A stretch of DNA of 64,000 bases from an uncultured Nitrososphaerales archaeon (GCA_963695855.1 CAVOHZ010000010.1:1056001-1120000), one strand, 5' to 3'. Counted from the first letter of the stretch, positions 48,992-54,526 are shown. Translations and numbers: made by a program. Notes: generated by a model from the sequence alone, not told the origin.

Positions 48992-49039
48992 TTTGTTTGA
49001 AAAGATATTGCCCTAGATTTACCGGCTGGAGATAAATTT

Positions 49040-49876
49040 ATGAAATTAGCTTTTAGTACTAATGCTTTTAAAAAATATTCACTTGATTTTGCAATAAAAG
49101 AAATATCAAAGATAGGATACGAAGGAGTGGAAATATTGTGTGATAGCCCTCATGCGTATCCCCCGGACTTTGCAGATAATAAAATAAATGAAACGCGAAA
49201 ATTGATTTCCGATCTTGGTTTAGGAATTTCTAACCTGAATGCATTTACCATGTACTCCATCGGCGATGTCTATCACCCCTCCTGGATCGAATCCAGTAAT
49301 GAGTTAAGAAAGTCAAGGATCAGTCACACCATAAATTGCATAAATCTAGCAGAGAAATTAGGTGCAAAAAATTTGTCTACGGAGCCAGGAGGACCATTCA
49401 ATTATCAAAAACCAAATGAAGACAGAGATAAACTTTTAAAGATATTTGTAAAGGGCTTGCTAGATGTATCAAAAATTGCGGAAAAAAAAGATATAAAGAT
49501 TCTAGTAGAACCGGAACCATCGTTACTGATTGAGAATTCCACCCAATTTTTAGAATTAATGCGATTGGTAGATTCAGACTACATTAGACTGAATTTTGAT
49601 ATTGGTCATTTTTATTGTGTAGCAGAAGATCCTGTTGCAATTATTAATAAGCTCGTAGATTATACAGAACATTTTCATTTTGCAGATATAGCAAGAAATA
49701 GGGTGCATTACCATTTGAAACCTGGCGATGGTTCTATAGATTTTGTTAAAGTTGTTGAGGCCATAGAAAAAACAGGATATAACGATTTTGTTACCGTTGA
49801 ATTATATCCATATCAAGATAACCCAGTTGAAGTTGCAAAGACTGCGTATGAATATTTGACAACAATTATTCGCTAA
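49040..49876 (+). CDS. Sugar phosphate isomerase/epimerase (xylose isomerase-like TIM barrel)
   Basis: AFSTNAF, EPEP, FDIGH, HFADI, HYHL.PGDG, VELY. Confidence 0.88.
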   Translation: MKLAFSTNAFKKYSLDFAIKEISKIGYEGVEILCDSPHAYPPDFADNKINETRKLISDLGLGISNLNAFTMYSIGDVYHPSWIESSNELRKSRISHTINCINLAEKLGAKNLSTEPGGPFNYQKPNEDRDKLLKIFVKGLLDVSKIAEKKDIKILVEPEPSLLIENSTQFLELMRLVDSDYIRLNFDIGHFYCVAEDPVAIINKLVDYTEHFHFADIARNRVHYHLKPGDGSIDFVKVVEAIEKTGYNDFVTVELYPYQDNPVEVAKTAYEYLTTIIR

Positions 49877-50210
49877 TTCTTCCGAGAAAGTATCATAGTT
49901 TTACTAAATGATTTCAAAAAATAAATTATTTTTATTTTCATCAAATCTTTCTTTTGATTCTAACAGTTTATTGATTGGTTAATTGATTTTTATAATTTCC
50001 CAGAATTCAAAGTAATTGAGAAGCAAGAATGTCGTTAAAAATCAGATGCTTAAAAATCAATAGTTTCTTTTTTTAATAGTAACTAAAAATTAAGACCGTC
50101 CACATGACAATATCATTAGATCATTACAGAATATGACGATTATTTGATTATAATTCAAGTATTTATGGCCAGTAATTCTTATATGGTACGGTCATGTACG
50201 GAATTTTATT

Positions 50211-50606
50211 ATGCCAAAGCCTGGCTTCAAATCGATTACTGTGAGCGAAAATGTTTACAACAAATTCTTCAAGGTATATGAAAAAAGAAAGAATGATTTA
50301 GAATTAAAAGGAATAACAAGCTTTTCGGGATATCTTACAAGTATGATGGAAGAAACTATGATAAAACAGGAGGCTTTTGCAAAACAGGCTCCATTCATGG
50401 AAAAAATATCTATTGATATTGATCGTGTATTACTTAAAGACAATAAAAAAAATAGAATAGTAGAAGTGATCTTGAAAAATGGTGAATTGAGATGCTTGGT
50501 AGACGAAAAGACCGATTGTATTCACATTGGTTTTGTTTATTCTTTACCTGAGGTATATATGATAATGAATAACAAGGGAATAAGAATCCCTAAACCTTTA
50601 CGCTAG
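50211..50606 (+). CDS. Hypothetical protein with N-terminal ribbon-helix-helix-like DNA-binding domain
   Basis: FKSITVSENVYNKF...SFSGYL RHH-like pattern; C-terminal C-x6-C-x-H. Confidence 0.75.
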   Translation: MPKPGFKSITVSENVYNKFFKVYEKRKNDLELKGITSFSGYLTSMMEETMIKQEAFAKQAPFMEKISIDIDRVLLKDNKKNRIVEVILKNGELRCLVDEKTDCIHIGFVYSLPEVYMIMNNKGIRIPKPLR

Positions 50607-50729
50607 TTAACCTCAAGATATTGAAATCTGATCAAAATATTTAAATCGATTTAAATAATATGAATTTATTTCAATAAATATCCTAGTAGGGATTATTGTA
50701 AGAAGGAACTTTTATTGGGTACTGTTAGC

Positions 50730-51046
50730 ATGGAAGAATCCTCAACAAATCAAAAAGTAAAGAATTCAAAATTTGGAACAATATATTAAAAATGTTATGG
50801 TCATGAAAAAAAATACAGCAGAGGAATACCAATTTCGATTAACTAATTTTGAAAAATTTCTTTTATCGTATTACAAAACTAATCTAGATGGGATTGTTCT
50901 AAATAAGATCTTTAAGTAACCATAAAAAAGAAAAACTTGATCCGTACAAGGTCCTTGGATATTACTGTGTATTTTTACAGGAGACTGAAATCGATGCTAG
51001 TACTCTTAAGAATCGTGTGGTAACTGCAAAGAATTTTCTTGAATGA
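50730..51046 (+). pseudogene. N-terminal (core-binding) remnant of a tyrosine integrase
   Basis: Across two frameshifts: MEESSTNQKVKNSKF/EQYIKNVMVMKKNTAEEYQFRLTNFEKFL.../DPYKVLGYYCVFLQETEIDASTLKNRVVTAKNFLE*; catalytic domain absent. Confidence 0.6.
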
Positions 51047-51602
51047 AGAAGAGACAAGGGAAACAATGCAATTTTACAATAATATGTTGATCGACTTTCA
51101 GAAAAATGTAGTATTATCTCAATCACCTAGAGAGATAGCGTATAGGAAATCCATAACGTTACTTGAAGAGATCAAGAATATTGGAGGAATAACCCTATAT
51201 GACTTATTTACACGTGTATGTCAGGGAAACGAATTACTATCAAAATATTTTGGATATGATGAAAATAAAGGATCATTAAAGGTCAGAGATAACATGAAAG
51301 TATCTAATGTATATTATATGTTATTGAATAGCTCAAAGATTAAAAAAATACAAGATAAACCAGTTGTCTTGCAATGACTATGTGGTACATGTGATCCATG
51401 TGATACCCCTAGAGAAGAAGAAATAATTCAAGAATTCACAGAAATAGACAATAATGAAAATAATTTACAATCTGAAACAGGATCACATACATCACATACA
51501 GAAGTACAAGAAGAAGAGAGTGTACCTATACAATTCGGCAAAGGTCCTATACAATTTGGACCAGATAAAGAGAAGAAGAAAAATGCAGGAGCAGAAAAAT
51601 AA
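51039..51602 (+). pseudogene. C-terminal remnant of an element-borne (Rep/primase-like) protein
   Basis: ORF begins abruptly where the integrase ends; ...KPVVLQ*LCGTCDPCDT... continuing to GSHTSHT in a shifted frame. Confidence 0.45.
51380..51497. repeat. Iteron-like 9-bp repeats, 3 direct + 2 inverted
   Basis: ATGTGGTAC/ATGTGATCC/ATGTGATAC (51380-51406) versus GGATCACAT/ACATCACAT (51480-51497). Confidence 0.7.
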
Positions 51603-51662
51603 TAGTTATGAATATTTATAATAAGGATGAGATAGACTGTCTAGAGAAATTAAGGAAAGAGG

Positions 51663-51866
51663 TTGAATGTGGCGGAGATGAAGAACTCATTGTACTTTAA
51701 GAAGTGCGATAATTGCAGTTTAAGATGGGATATCAATAACCTGTATTATATTAATGTGGATAATACGGTACTGTTCTGTTCTATCTGTACAAACAACCAC
51801 TATAGCGAACTGGATAGGAGGAGACGTAGCGACTTGTATACAAGGAGGACGTACGAACAGGATTGA
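51663..51866 (+). CDS. Small zinc-finger-like protein (element-borne)
   Basis: CDNC...CSIC pair. Confidence 0.55.
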   Translation: MNVAEMKNSLYFKKCDNCSLRWDINNLYYINVDNTVLFCSICTNNHYSELDRRRRSDLYTRRTYEQD

Positions 51867-51886
51867 CAGTTTCAAGTGACAGTGTT

Positions 51887-51985
51887 ATGATGGCACTAAT
51901 CTTTGGAGGTGTAGTTATTATATTAATAGCCGTAGCGAGGATGTGGATGAGTCTGAAAGAGTCGAAGGGGAAAACCAGGGAATGA
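51887..51985 (+). CDS. Small single-TM protein (element-borne)
   Basis: MMALIFGGVVIILIAVARMWMSLKESKGKTRE*; an in-frame TTG at 51863 overlaps the upstream stop. Confidence 0.45.
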   Translation: MMALIFGGVVIILIAVARMWMSLKESKGKTRE

Positions 51986-52025
51986 CTCTCGATATTAAAG
52001 AAATAAAGAAAAAAAGATTGTGGGA

Positions 52026-52262
52026 TTATTTTCTAAGGACGTCGACCTGGCCGTTATGCAGCCAATCTTTTAATTCTTCATGTGATGGTTTTGCGTCATG
52101 TTTTCCTGCAAGATGTAGATGTAATAAAACATAATTCACTTGATTTAATAATGGTTTATTACTCTCGTCTCCTTTTCTGGCTTTTTGTTTTAAGTCTGAG
52201 GGCACATTATTCCACCAGTCATTAAAACTTCTCTTTCCTGTAGTACTAGGTACTAAATCCAA
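52026..52262 (-). CDS. Small hypothetical protein
   Basis: Intact, protein-like 78-aa ORF (WWNNVPSDLKQKAR...LNQVNYVLLHLH...KPSHEELKDWL). Confidence 0.65.
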   Translation of the reverse strand: MDLVPSTTGKRSFNDWWNNVPSDLKQKARKGDESNKPLLNQVNYVLLHLHLAGKHDAKPSHEELKDWLHNGQVDVLRK

Positions 52263-52377
52263 AACCTGTTGGGTATGCCTTATTATTTTATCAATTCTAT
52301 ATTTAGAAGAAGTGGAATATAAACAAACATGAGAATAAATACTAAAAGTTCCTATTTATTAGGTGAATAGGTAGTAA

Positions 52378-52841
52378 ATGGGAAATTTCACAGCAAAGGA
52401 AAATAAAATTCTTTTAGCATTGGTTTCTGACCGCATACACTACGGGTTTAGTGAATCCGAGGCCTTAGCATGTATCAGGGCTAGATTAGGGAGAGAAATA
52501 TCACCATAGGCATACTATAACCGCAAGAAACAGGTAGACTCTGACAAATATGCAAAATAATGGCTAAACTATTTTACCCGTATCGGTTTTGTTGTAAAGT
52601 ATAAACAGATAATTGAGATTGTAGAACTATGAAAGATATTTTAAGAGATTGTTTGATTGAACAGTCAAAACCTTATGCACAGAGGAATATAGAACTAATC
52701 CAACCATTACGTTTGGAGATAATGGAAGGATGCAAGATATTGCAGGACTTGAGTTTAGGTACCCCAATTATTGCATAGAGTAAAGCAAAGATAGACAATG
52801 TTGAAATGCCTCAGCCAAGCCAGATAATATCTTATCTTTAA
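52378..52841 (+). pseudogene. Putative terminase small subunit / HTH protein pseudogene
   Basis: MGNFTAKENKILLALVSDRIHYGFSESEALACIRARLGREISP*AYYNRKKQV...K*WLNYFTRIGF...LSLGTPIIA*; several stops and a frameshift; abuts the TerL gene. Confidence 0.55.
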
Positions 52842-53667
52842 TGTCATGTCCAAATGGGCATAACACTAACAAGTTAGATATATTCAAAAACAAACCATTC
52901 TATTTTGAGATTGAAAATGATAACGGGGTAAATCGCTGTTTTAATTGTACGCTAGGCCTACCTAGAAAGAACGATATTGCCAATCCGTTATGGGATTACG
53001 AAAAGTTAATTGTTGATGAATTAGAAAATCATAAATATTTATGGATTCTAAAGAGTACAGGTTTAGGAATTACAGAACTATTCTTACGTTATATGTCTTG
53101 GTTATGTCTACGTAACAACGATTATAATAATAGTCAGTTCGTTATTGTCACTGGTCCAAATATTGATTTAGCATTCAAGTCAATCAAACGTCTAAAAACC
53201 ATGTTTATGGATAGTTTCAATATTACATTTGATTCTAAAGAAACAGTTATCGAATTAAATAATGTAAGGATAGAAGCGTATCCTTCAAATCATATTGATA
53301 GTTTTAGAAGTTTAGATAATCCTAGATTCATATTACTTGATTGATGCGATTTCTTCCGTAAAGGAGAACAGGAGGACGTTAGGGGAGTAGCAGAACTATA
53401 CATAGCAAAATCTAATCCATAAATCGAGATGGTTTCTACTCCTAACGCACCTGGAGGCCTCATACAATCAATAGAACAGGAACTTGAAGATACTGCCTAT
53501 ATAAGCGAATAAAACTAGATTATAGGTATGGACTTTATCGAATATATTCGGAAGAAGATATCGAGAAAGCGAAACAGTCACCGTCCCTTGATAGAGAGTA
53601 CGACTTAAAGTATCTTGGTAAGATTGGAAATCTGTATTCACAGTTATCTATTGAGAATGCACTAGCG
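52841..53667 (+). pseudogene. Terminase large-subunit ATPase-domain pseudogene
   Basis: Walker A-like KSTGLGIT, Walker B FILLD*CDFF (TGA 53342), TAA 53420, motif III MVSTPN, frameshift near 53492, then SPSLDREYDLKY; nuclease domain absent. Confidence 0.8.
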
Positions 53668-53720
53668 ATATACGTTTTTTTAACAATATTTAATATGTTT
53701 ATGCTTTTTAAATATCCTAA

Positions 53721-54371
53721 TTGGATGATGTTACATTTTCTATTCCAATAGTACTTCAAATTCTTGATCTGTTTGGTATCATGGCTTTTGCAGTAACAGG
53801 AGCTTTGAAAGCAATTGAATACAAAATGGATATTGTTGGGGTTATAATGTTAGCAAGCAGTACAGGATTAGCTGGGGGGTTAATTAGAGACGTAATTTTA
53901 AATAGGATTCCCCCAAAGGTCTTGGTAGATCCGTTTTATTTGCTAGTTGCTGTTTCAACAGGTTTGATTGTATTTTTTTTGTATCGTTTTTTTAAGGAAA
54001 ATTTTAATTTATTCTTGAAATTTGATGCTATCGGTTTGGGTGTATTCAGTATAATAGGCGCCAGTGTTGCCTACGAAATAACTGGTCTGAATTTCATTGC
54101 TATGGCATTTGCTGGAATCTTTAGCGCCATTGGAGGGGGAATTTTTAGAGATATAATTGTCAAGGAAATTCCATTGGTATTCTTAAAAGAATTATATGCA
54201 TCTGCAAGTTTTTTGGGTATTACCATCTTTTATATTATGTTATTTTTTGAAATAAATTATTATTTTTCTATGATGATTTGTATAGTTATTATTACAGTAT
54301 TTAGACTACTTTCTATGAAATTCAATTGGAATCTACCTAGATTACATACTGATGAAAAAAATGTGGATTAA
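53721..54371 (+). CDS. TRIC cation channel family (UPF0126) membrane protein
   Basis: LDLFGIMAFAVTGA, GGLIRDVIL, FDAIGLGVF, GGGIFRD, ELYASAS. Confidence 0.92.
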   Translation: MDDVTFSIPIVLQILDLFGIMAFAVTGALKAIEYKMDIVGVIMLASSTGLAGGLIRDVILNRIPPKVLVDPFYLLVAVSTGLIVFFLYRFFKENFNLFLKFDAIGLGVFSIIGASVAYEITGLNFIAMAFAGIFSAIGGGIFRDIIVKEIPLVFLKELYASASFLGITIFYIMLFFEINYYFSMMICIVIITVFRLLSMKFNWNLPRLHTDEKNVD

Positions 54372-54526
54372 TGTTAACCTTAATCTAGTACTACTACTAT
54401 AAAACCTACAGATACTTTAGTTCATTTGATTAAAGGAAGAAAAAGGACAAATGATAGCAAAAACAAACCATTTTAATATCGAACAGAAAATAGCGGTGAT
54501 AACAATTTTTCTACATGGATATGTTC

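Follow-up and report, generated by a model that had tools for sequence, protein, structure and literature searches.

What use is a DNA-packaging motor to a genetic element that has no capsid to fill? The question is raised by a 3-kb insert in the genome of an uncultured Nitrososphaerales archaeon, found within a stretch of 64,000 nucleotides that we call the window (GCA_963695855.1, CAVOHZ010000010.1:1056001-1120000; all positions are counted from its first letter). The insert, at 50686-53719, holds the remains of an integrase (Int), a replicative helicase of the MCM family and the small and large subunits of a terminase (TerS and TerL). Terminases are treated as a hallmark restricted to head-tail and herpes-type viruses. 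Integrative elements that have no capsid and keep a full terminase under selection break this rule.

We followed the insert into related genomes, metagenomes and viral contigs. The explanation that we favour, with a probability of roughly 0.45, joins three parts: the insert is a dead Int-MCM-TerS-TerL relic, it belongs to a family of capsid-less elements, and intact members of this family are satellites of head-tail viruses. The window copy is of interest only as a way into the family, which is represented, often by numerous copies, in nearly half the genomes of a major family of soil nitrifiers.

A dead integrative element

The genome of the window (G000; 3.55 Mb in 11 contigs) encodes an archaeal AmoA (E 1.4e-117) and is therefore that of an ammonia-oxidising archaeon (AOA). 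The G+C content around the insert is ~31%, and translation of 50600-53760 in three frames gives a run of disrupted reading frames on the plus strand. In the nearest genome of the genus (G200, 96-98% protein identity) the site is empty. That is, the host genes at 49040-49876 and 53721-54371 are separated by 3,847 bp in the window and by 816 bp in G200, and in 16 other genomes of the genus the same two genes lie on one contig, with their orientation kept and a gap of 99-1467 bp. Aligned with G200 by blastn, 49000-50685 (96% identity) and 53691-54500 (95%) abut each other, and a three-way alignment of both junctions with the empty site places the boundaries at 50685/50686 and 53719/53720. A direct repeat of 11 bp, TAAATATCCTA, stands at both junctions within ~30 bp of imperfect similarity. 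Its count in the whole genome is as expected from composition (11 vs 11.7), yet copies lie exactly at both junctions, and its position is therefore not a matter of chance. The repeat flanks none of the other TerL loci in the genome, and a search of the window for tRNA genes found none. A first-pass annotation, made from the sequence alone, had set the limits of a collapsed element at 50675-53719, which proves nearly exact, and had proposed attachment (att) sites of intact relatives as a check; for the window's own insert there are both an empty site in G200 and a direct repeat.

We regard 50686-53719 as very probably what remains, dead and with internal deletions, of a mobile element that had integrated site-specifically. 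The relic is without any activity today: as first suspected, stops or frameshifts run through it, and every recognisable gene is broken. Comparison with intact relatives puts the original element at about 11-13 kb, in the order integrase, MCM helicase, small genes, TerS, TerL. It has since been shortened by at least two large internal deletions. One brought integrase residue ~91 next to MCM residue ~436; the other removed everything from TerL residue ~298 to the right att site, so that the TerL remnant stops ~30 bp short of attR. The remaining parts are broken by point decay.

The main pieces can be named by comparison with intact genes (table 1). The integrase fragment consists of two stretches in different frames (50773-50919 and 50915-51046), collinear with an intact tyrosine integrase of 387 aa (L047:1698-2861), at its residues 8-49 and 58-91 (BLASTP E 1e-06 and 4e-05). 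By tblastx it also matches an integrase locus of the same genome (C8:344072-344329) at 57% identity (E 1.8e-17), and the Pfam family Phage_int_SAM_1 (PF02899) gives a weak match (0.061). The abrupt fusion of an integrase N-terminus to a 'Rep-like' C-terminus, described in the first-pass annotation, is present, and the second partner is an MCM helicase. This piece (51039-51422, or to about 51521 in some comparisons) corresponds to residues ~436-593 of proteins of 583-736 aa in related genomes, of which intact examples (L098, L100, L103) match PF00493 (E 3.2e-39) and MCM_lid (E 7.4e-11).

Further along, a gene with a helix-turn-helix-like N-terminus does overlap a terminase ATPase. The TerS-like pseudogene shares 56-65% identity with intact paralogues of 146-151 aa, and the TerL pseudogene 61-68% with paralogues of ~480 aa (blastx, E to 1e-100). 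A 167-aa open piece of this TerL matches phrog_2, 'terminase large subunit' (E 1.1e-07), and the remnant shows a Walker A-like KSTGLGITE, an STP and an REY motif. The first of its stops (53342-53344) replaces the codon of the Walker B glutamate (FILLD*CDFF vs FILLDECDFF in intact copies). Pfam scored nothing above its curated cut-offs on 16 pieces of the window, and Pfam and PHROG scans found no portal, capsid or tail genes within the 3-kb insert, as had been noted at the outset.

The terminase of intact relatives

By its motifs and its predicted structure, the TerL of intact relatives is a real, two-domain large terminase. Fifteen full-length homologues from 12 genomes (mean column identity 50%) share an invariant lysine-first Walker A motif (K..TG.G; K90, G93 and G95), a Walker B pair (D185-E186) and S217-T218-P219, and the REY motif is also conserved. 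In the nuclease half, the acidic residues D316 and D373 are invariant, and D463 and D466 are present in at least 90% of the 15 sequences. An intact paralogue matches phrog_2 at E 1.5e-18. In addition, an AlphaFold model (mean predicted local distance difference test score, pLDDT, 81.2) was compared with the PDB by Foldseek, and the first 15 matches listed are large terminases only, led by T4 gp17 (5.3e-19) and HK97 TerL (2.8e-14), then Sf6, D6E and T7. Its ATPase half matches the isolated ATPase domains of T4 gp17 and P74-26, and its nuclease half the isolated nuclease domains of G20c, P22, SPP1 and RB49. No Pfam terminase family matches either the window piece or the intact paralogue, and the TerL alignment, searched as a sequence profile against the PDB, returned nothing beyond chance P-loop matches. 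Because the intact relatives have the nuclease domain, its absence from the window (already seen in the first pass) is a deletion and not a design. The suggestion that intact relatives would encode an ATPase-only TerL does not hold.

The small gene upstream overlaps TerL in elements and viruses alike. Its family in the elements aligns with the gene in the TerS position of portal-bearing viral contigs (hhalign 96%, E 1.4e-09), and a model of the protein (pLDDT 78.7) has three short helices and a long helical hairpin. A Foldseek search with this model returned nothing at E 0.001 or better: TerS structures of G20c (6ejq, E 0.97) and P74-26 (6v1i, E 1.1) appear at insignificant values, and a wider fold search was swamped by generic helical hairpins. 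Pfam and PHROGs have no match for the protein.

A family without portal or capsid

The relic is one dead member of a large, multi-copy family of integrative elements in AOA. In its own genome the 167-aa TerL piece has 13 matches at 11 loci. Four of the TerL genes there are full-length and open (L028, 479 aa; L029, 474; L030, 482; L032, 443), and those at the remaining loci are split, fused or truncated. Across the archaeal family, TerL matches are present in 108 of 238 genomes and in 16 of 18 genera, often with 5-16 matches per genome. When the class was sampled with a TerL profile (tallies that include seven genomes flagged as unpublished), matches were found in 45 of 77 genomes of this family, in 9/224 and 3/10 genomes of two sister families, and in none of 89 genomes from 17 other families. 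A metagenome scan added at least 562 related stretches. The search for intact copies that the first pass had proposed was therefore fruitful in the same genome, in related genomes and in metagenomes, and the order integrase - replication - TerS - TerL is kept in intact relatives (e.g. L113, L160, L205 and L207); L113 has the same Int-MCM-TerS-TerL order as the window. The replication module varies: it can be an MCM helicase, a PrimPol with a PriX domain together with a helicase, a D5-like primase-helicase or a family B DNA polymerase (PolB).

The unit at L028 (~11 kb, L028:4232-15406) shows what such an element contains. It holds a Zn-ribbon gene, a split P-loop helicase, a 373-aa PriX-domain protein (E 1.8e-13), TerS, TerL, two Zn-ribbon proteins, a 224-aa protein of a group that we call c18, a SWIM protein and an integrase. 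All of its open reading frames (ORFs) longer than about 230 aa are accounted for by the helicase, the PriX-domain primase, TerL and the integrase, which leaves nothing of portal size. A repeat search for att sites around L028 and L029 found only short AT-rich matches, none of them convincing. In this otherwise well-preserved element, L028, the integrase is split by a 34-bp tandem duplication (L028:15107-15174), and a 199-aa ORF contains three perfect tandem repeats of 87-88 nt (L028:12569-12830).

Other loci vary this scheme. At L048:11471-16849 and L054:3672-6309 the TerS-TerL pair lies beside PolB genes, one of them a 1,792-aa ORF; the terminase module therefore also combines with PolB-type replicons. 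Directly after TerL at L047:11247-17640 come defence-type genes, for a GmrSD-N + Swt1-like HEPN protein and a NurA-like protein; relatives of the last two also occur in the window's genome at C10:1176909-1180624, outside the window.

To compare gene content, the ORFs of 29 genomic loci (9 from the window's own genome and 20 chosen for long open frames and longer contigs, with ~10 kb on each side) were clustered with those of 40 IMG/VR loci (L057-L096). A portal cluster (member L049:11894-13306, Portal_Mu, E 8.5e-08) has members in 2/29 genomic and 29/40 viral loci, and a capsid cluster (one member matching phrog_267, E 6.7e-08) in 2/29 and 14/40. The clusters of the elements' integrase and of their main TerS type each have members in 12/29 genomic and 0/40 viral loci. 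With labelled reference proteins, the genomic loci gave an integrase in 20/29, a replication gene in 12/29 and a portal in 2/29, and the viral loci a portal in 34/40. The only genomic loci with both portal and capsid (L049 and L052) are true proviruses of another genus, and they have tail genes too. Among 19 metagenome contigs of at least 8 kb, 18 have TerS, 12 an integrase and 3 a gene in the portal position; none matches the capsid set. The family thus has members that lack portal and capsid genes and keep a complete terminase, which agrees with the capsid-less relatives foreseen by the first pass: portal and capsid are absent from 27/29 genomic loci, and 16/19 metagenome contigs are without a portal-position gene.

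The whole genome of the window was searched as well. No portal was found by PF04860, nor by tblastn with all proteins of at least 100 aa from 12 viral and 4 genomic loci; PF06074 had no match either, in a weak search whose control also gave no signal. No capsid was found by PF05065, by the same tblastn search or by a capsid profile on the six-frame translation, although divergent genes could escape these searches. Profiles of the portals and capsids of related viruses, run on the six-frame genome, returned nothing except one marginal match (E 0.013), and the TerL profile found 23 fragments.

Selection on TerL and links to viruses

TerL is under strong purifying selection in these capsid-less settings. 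Ratios of nonsynonymous to synonymous divergence (dN/dS; pairwise Nei-Gojobori estimates among portal-less loci, with more distant pairs saturated) are 0.039 for L038/L039 (dS 1.0), 0.073 for L037/L113 (dS 0.63) and 0.17 for L030/L032 (dS 0.65).

The same gene family links the elements to viruses. In a quick maximum-likelihood tree of 55 TerLs, one clade of 30 rows includes all portal-bearing contigs that are defined by sequence (support 100 in the Shimodaira-Hasegawa-like approximate likelihood-ratio test, SH-aLRT); most capsid-less loci fall outside this clade. The TerLs of four IMG/VR contigs of 41-60 kb (L057, L058, L060 and L064) nest among copies from the window's genus. In these contigs TerL is followed by a gene of 506-525 aa, and next to it a MuF-like minor head protein (phrog_115) is recognised in L058 (E 1.5e-08) and weakly in L057 (E 6.3e-04). 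The elements measure ~11 kb vs 41-60 kb for these related viral contigs.

Two more genes, present in many of the elements, are shared with viral or virus-like contigs: one for a Zn-ribbon protein of ~155 aa directly after TerL, and c18 (~230 aa). The latter occurs in eight genomic loci (e.g. L028:11656-12330), and in the virus-like contigs L146 (L146:13529-14164) and L159 (L159:7752-8402) it comes after a capsid-sized gene. Searches with c18 gave no usable hit in a protein atlas, none in PDB profiles, and E 0.03 or worse in PHROGs.

Some TerL copies are mosaic. L029 (L029:9504-10928) joins a divergent, virus-like ATPase half to a nuclease half that is almost the same as in L028 (L028:8844-10283), and L032 (L032:7540-8871) has a front like L028 and a rear like L030 (L030:7886-9334). 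Such mosaics within one genome suggest recombination or gene conversion among copies, which disturbs the TerL tree.

The terminase ATPase also occurs on its own. In genus g16 of the same family, TerL matches are present in 38/40 genomes, and six genomes (L122-L127) carry a syntenic ATPase-only homologue of 268-289 aa, with identical host neighbours in 6/6. This gene spans TerL residues ~11-277 and ends just past the REY..KY motif; its extent is comparable to 52841-53676 in the window. Walker A, Walker B and STPN are kept, and pairwise dN/dS is 0.10-0.20 where dS is at least 0.9. It looks like a terminase ATPase domain that has become a resident cellular gene.

Satellites, or a terminase with another task

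That intact members are satellites of head-tail viruses is a tentative idea, to which we give somewhat less than even odds. It is the most economical mechanism, and it fits four observations: packaging genes are shared, viral TerLs nest among those of the elements, replication genes are modular, and the elements have ~11 kb against 41-60 kb in the viral contigs. On this proposal an element would excise and then replicate itself; its own TerS would recognise the element's DNA; its TerL would dock on the portals of procapsids that a related virus makes in the same cell; and TerL would pump in and cut the DNA, which could then spread in borrowed capsids. A more detailed version is more tentative again: soil AOA may host satellites that bring their own TerS and TerL, a Zn-ribbon partner and a head-module protein, and that would take over nothing but the empty procapsids of a helper, with the g16 ATPase domain domesticated as a side branch. 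We know of no description, in bacteria or archaea, of an element that hijacks only procapsids and uses a full terminase of its own.

Several observations weigh against satellites. Every copy inspected in the window's genome has at least one broken core gene (e.g. integrase and helicase in L028, TerS in L029, TerL in L031). Eleven loci in a single genome is an unusually high copy number, and satellites usually reach far fewer copies per genome. No helper-type provirus was found in the window's genome. Solitary, strongly selected TerL copies (L038, L039, L042 and L053) stand between insertion sequence (IS) elements or host genes, without integrase, replication gene or TerS, and hint at a use that needs no capsid; the re-use in g16 likewise indicates that parts of a terminase can serve the cell otherwise. 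The comparison itself has limits that bear on the same side: the 20 loci from other genomes are a non-random sample of ~10 kb per side, the structural genes of archaeal viruses are poorly covered by Pfam and PHROGs, and the second 'portal' group (506-543 aa; L057, L058, L060, L146 and L159) was assigned by position, size and the adjacent MuF-like minor head protein, not by a sequence match. Finally, the circular or virome forms that the first pass had hoped for were not found. None of the 40 IMG/VR loci is an element-like capsid-less locus or has the elements' integrase or TerS type, and 0/80 metagenome contigs have terminal repeats. Among the sequencing runs listed with matches there is no RNA run, and the best DNA matches are soil-metagenome contigs that carry at most 0.20 of the sampled words. 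Four of these gave short, low-depth pieces without an excision or circle joint, and are uninformative on excision or expression either way.

Many of these points can be read differently, namely that the family consists of plasmid-like cryptic integrated elements whose terminase has a job other than filling capsids. It might cut concatemers to unit length, aid excision or transfer by another route, or block the packaging of infecting viruses as a form of defence. We consider this doubtful, and it is the best placed of the alternatives. It would account for strong selection on TerL with no integrase, replication gene or TerS nearby (as in the L038/L039 pair), for the very high copy number per genome, for the syntenic and selected ATPase-only gene of g16, for the lack of a virion-borne or circular form in IMG/VR and the metagenome contigs, and for defence-type neighbours at some loci (GmrSD + HEPN at L047). 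On the other hand, the elements keep the whole packaging set as viruses do, with TerS overlapping TerL and the nuclease residues intact, and they also keep the Zn-ribbon gene and c18, which otherwise lie inside viral head modules. To our knowledge a two-subunit terminase has no non-viral role, which also counts against another task.

Are the elements simply decayed head-tail proviruses that have lost their structural genes? For this family such an origin is unlikely. The same TerL family does occur in true proviruses with portal, capsid and tail (L049 and L052) and in viral contigs, many copies are visibly decaying (the window's included), and decay has been proposed for the single case of NitKor-E1, an integrated element discussed below (in the part of PMC6563490 drawn on here). 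Independent losses, though, would not repeat one architecture (integrase, plasmid-type replication module, TerS, TerL, Zn-ribbon gene and c18) across genera and metagenomes, and a genome with 23 TerL fragments yields no portal or capsid fragments by profile search. Moreover, TerL is under strong purifying selection, and the elements' types of integrase and TerS are missing from the viral loci. The recurrent capsid-less architecture, the plasmid-type replication and the selected TerL are thus our reasons for holding that the family is not a set of independent provirus wrecks. An ordinary decayed provirus, in the terms of the first-pass annotation, would have intact relatives that always carry portal, capsid and full TerL; the full TerL is there, and in most of them the portal and capsid are not.

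That the elements are autonomous small viruses of a new kind, with capsid and portal among their unannotated genes, is very improbable: most element genes are indeed without annotation and several elements carry conserved secreted or membrane proteins and c18, but the ~11-kb unit of L028 leaves nothing of portal size (at least 400 aa) or capsid size, and every terminase-using virus that we know of has a portal and an HK97-fold capsid protein.

Comparison with known systems

If intact members are satellites, they would represent a new form of virus parasitism in which an element brings its own packaging motor and borrows the shell, and they would be the first satellites of archaeal tailed viruses apart from a putative Asgard case (NMV2S, see below). 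If the terminase has another role, the family would be an example of a non-packaging use of terminases.

The closest bacterial parallel is with satellites of the type of Staphylococcus aureus pathogenicity islands and phage-inducible chromosomal islands (SaPIs and PICIs), a likeness that the first pass had pointed out. In both, the order is integrase - replication - packaging, the size is near 10-15 kb, genes for capsid and tail are missing, and a packaging gene is homologous to one in the helper, which for the elements would be a related virus. Classical PICIs carry at most TerS and use the TerL of their helper. The elements described here differ in having both terminase subunits and archaeal hosts. 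Capsid-forming PICIs (cf-PICIs) resemble them in another way: in the available text of 10.1101/2025.02.11.637232 they are 10-18 kb long and encode both terminase subunits themselves, along with an integrase, a replication module and an HNH endonuclease. According to the same text, they make their own capsid, protease, portal, adaptor and connector as well and take nothing but tails from the helper; genes of this kind are absent from the elements described here.

AOA also host head-tail viruses and proviruses (L049, L052 and L057-L096), which share the TerL family and a homologous TerS with the elements and, in some cases, the Zn-ribbon gene and c18. The TerLs from IMG/VR are 33-46% identical to the first sequence of our profile. 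The viruses and proviruses differ in carrying a portal (Portal_Mu), a major head protein (phrog_267) and tail genes on 35-100 kb, and they are without the elements' integrase and plasmid-type replication modules. Head-tail proviruses of the Nvie-Pro1 type in ammonia-oxidising archaea are treated in the consulted part of Krupovic et al. 2019 (PMC6563490).

The nearest precedent comes from the same source. NitKor-E1 of Ca. Nitrosopumilus koreensis AR1 is given there as a cryptic integrated element with TerS and TerL and no other head-tail virus gene; in the sections at hand, Krupovic et al. 2019 call its terminase 'enigmatic', suggest a relic and state that terminases had not been found in non-viral elements (PMC6563490). 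NitKor-E1 and the family have in common an AOA host, a tyrosine integrase and a TerS immediately upstream of TerL. By its description in those sections, NitKor-E1 differs in being a single element from a marine family that carries a toxin-antitoxin pair and a restriction enzyme (PMC6563490). The family here is multi-copy, with matches in 108/238 genomes and in 562 or more metagenome stretches. It brings replication modules of its own and two extra genes shared with viruses, and its TerL is under purifying selection. A cryptic integrated element, as defined in the same passages, is integrated, has integrase and/or replication genes and is not assignable to viruses, casposons, IS or conjugative elements (PMC6563490). 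On its gene content the relic falls within this definition: no capsid genes were found, and conjugation genes received no dedicated search. Full-text literature searches found no description of the family beyond NitKor-E1; some of its loci may be listed in the supplementary element lists of Krupovic et al. 2019 and of provirus surveys.

Among archaeal satellites, pSSVx, pSSVi and SRCE are presented as satellites of spindle-shaped viruses in the accessible part of bioRxiv 10.1101/2025.02.15.638363, and NMV2S as a putative Asgard satellite of a tailed virus in that of bioRxiv 10.64898/2026.08.12.739948, where no terminase gene is mentioned. As far as these texts go, all four resemble our elements in combining a plasmid-type replicon with an incomplete module for virus morphogenesis. 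The satellites of spindle-shaped viruses, as described in the accessible part, differ in belonging to another virus realm and in carrying an AAA+ ATPase or a spindle capsid protein and no terminase. These distinctions bear on how viruses are counted. Pipelines for provirus mining, to go by the part of PMC13573593 used here, accept a terminase as a viral hallmark; elements and relics of this kind would be counted as proviruses, and estimates of lysogeny in AOA would be inflated.

Features of the locus

The coordinates of the relic and of the host genes beside it are collected in table 1.

Table 1. The relic and its surroundings in the window (aa, amino acids;., no strand)
Feature	Position	Strand	Remarks
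Flanking 131-aa gene	50211..50606	+	host side; in empty site, kept across genus
attL core, left TAAATATCCTA copy	50675..50685	.	host sequence equals empty site up to 50685
Inserted segment	50686..53719	+	3,034 bp; very probably the remnant of an eroded Int-MCM-TerS-TerL integrative element; G200 has the empty site
Tyrosine-integrase N-terminal (SAM-like) fragment, residues ~8-91	about 50776..51043	+	two frames; catalytic domain deleted
MCM-family replicative helicase, C-terminal fragment	51039..51521	+	in-frame TGA at 51375-51377; N-terminal ~430 residues deleted
67-aa ORF with two CxxC pairs (Zn-ribbon-like), putative gene	51663..51866	+	open frame; weak family matches only
40-aa ORF with one hydrophobic (membrane) helix, putative gene	51863..51985	+	open frame
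Copy of a small gene (ORF 52026-52262, 78 aa)	52009..52308	-	blastn to paralogues in the genome
TerS-like pseudogene, N-terminal helix-turn-helix-like	52378..52823	+	full length covered; several in-frame stops, one frameshift
TerL pseudogene, ATPase domain only	52805..53676	+	residues 1-298 of ~480; three in-frame stops, one frameshift; nuclease domain deleted
attR core, right TAAATATCCTA copy	53709..53719	.	host sequence again from 53720
Flanking host membrane-protein gene	53721..54371	+	annotated TTG start 2 bp past the insert

Between the helicase fragment and TerS (51520-52380), the relic has small ORFs without relatives, apart from the minus-strand copy of a small gene. The small Zn-finger and transmembrane ORFs of the first-pass annotation stand as open frames, and neither of them has a relative in any locus fetched. 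The minus-strand segment matches C3:150236-150539 at 87% and C2:40014-40215 at 80% identity (blastn). The corresponding paralogues of its ORF (71-85 aa; C3:150265-150522 and C2:40008-40223) sit amid ordinary cellular genes.

On the left flank, the 131-aa gene was considered as a gene of the element, with homologues near TerL in 4/29 genomic loci, and then discarded, since the empty site contains it and it is conserved across the genus. Its neighbour in other genomes, DUF72, is a cellular-type gene. A 58-bp imperfect palindrome (50619-50676) follows the 131-aa gene directly before the att core. Both lie in the empty site of G200 and therefore belong to the host side.

In a second close relative, G197, the site is occupied by ~605 bp of different, repeated sequence (L106, G197:C72, ~1140-1746). 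This sequence matches at least 8 other places in G000, with up to 90% identity, and might represent a short repeat or part of an IS. G197 also keeps ~40-58 bp from the end of the window's insert, so the insertion may be older than the split of these strains.

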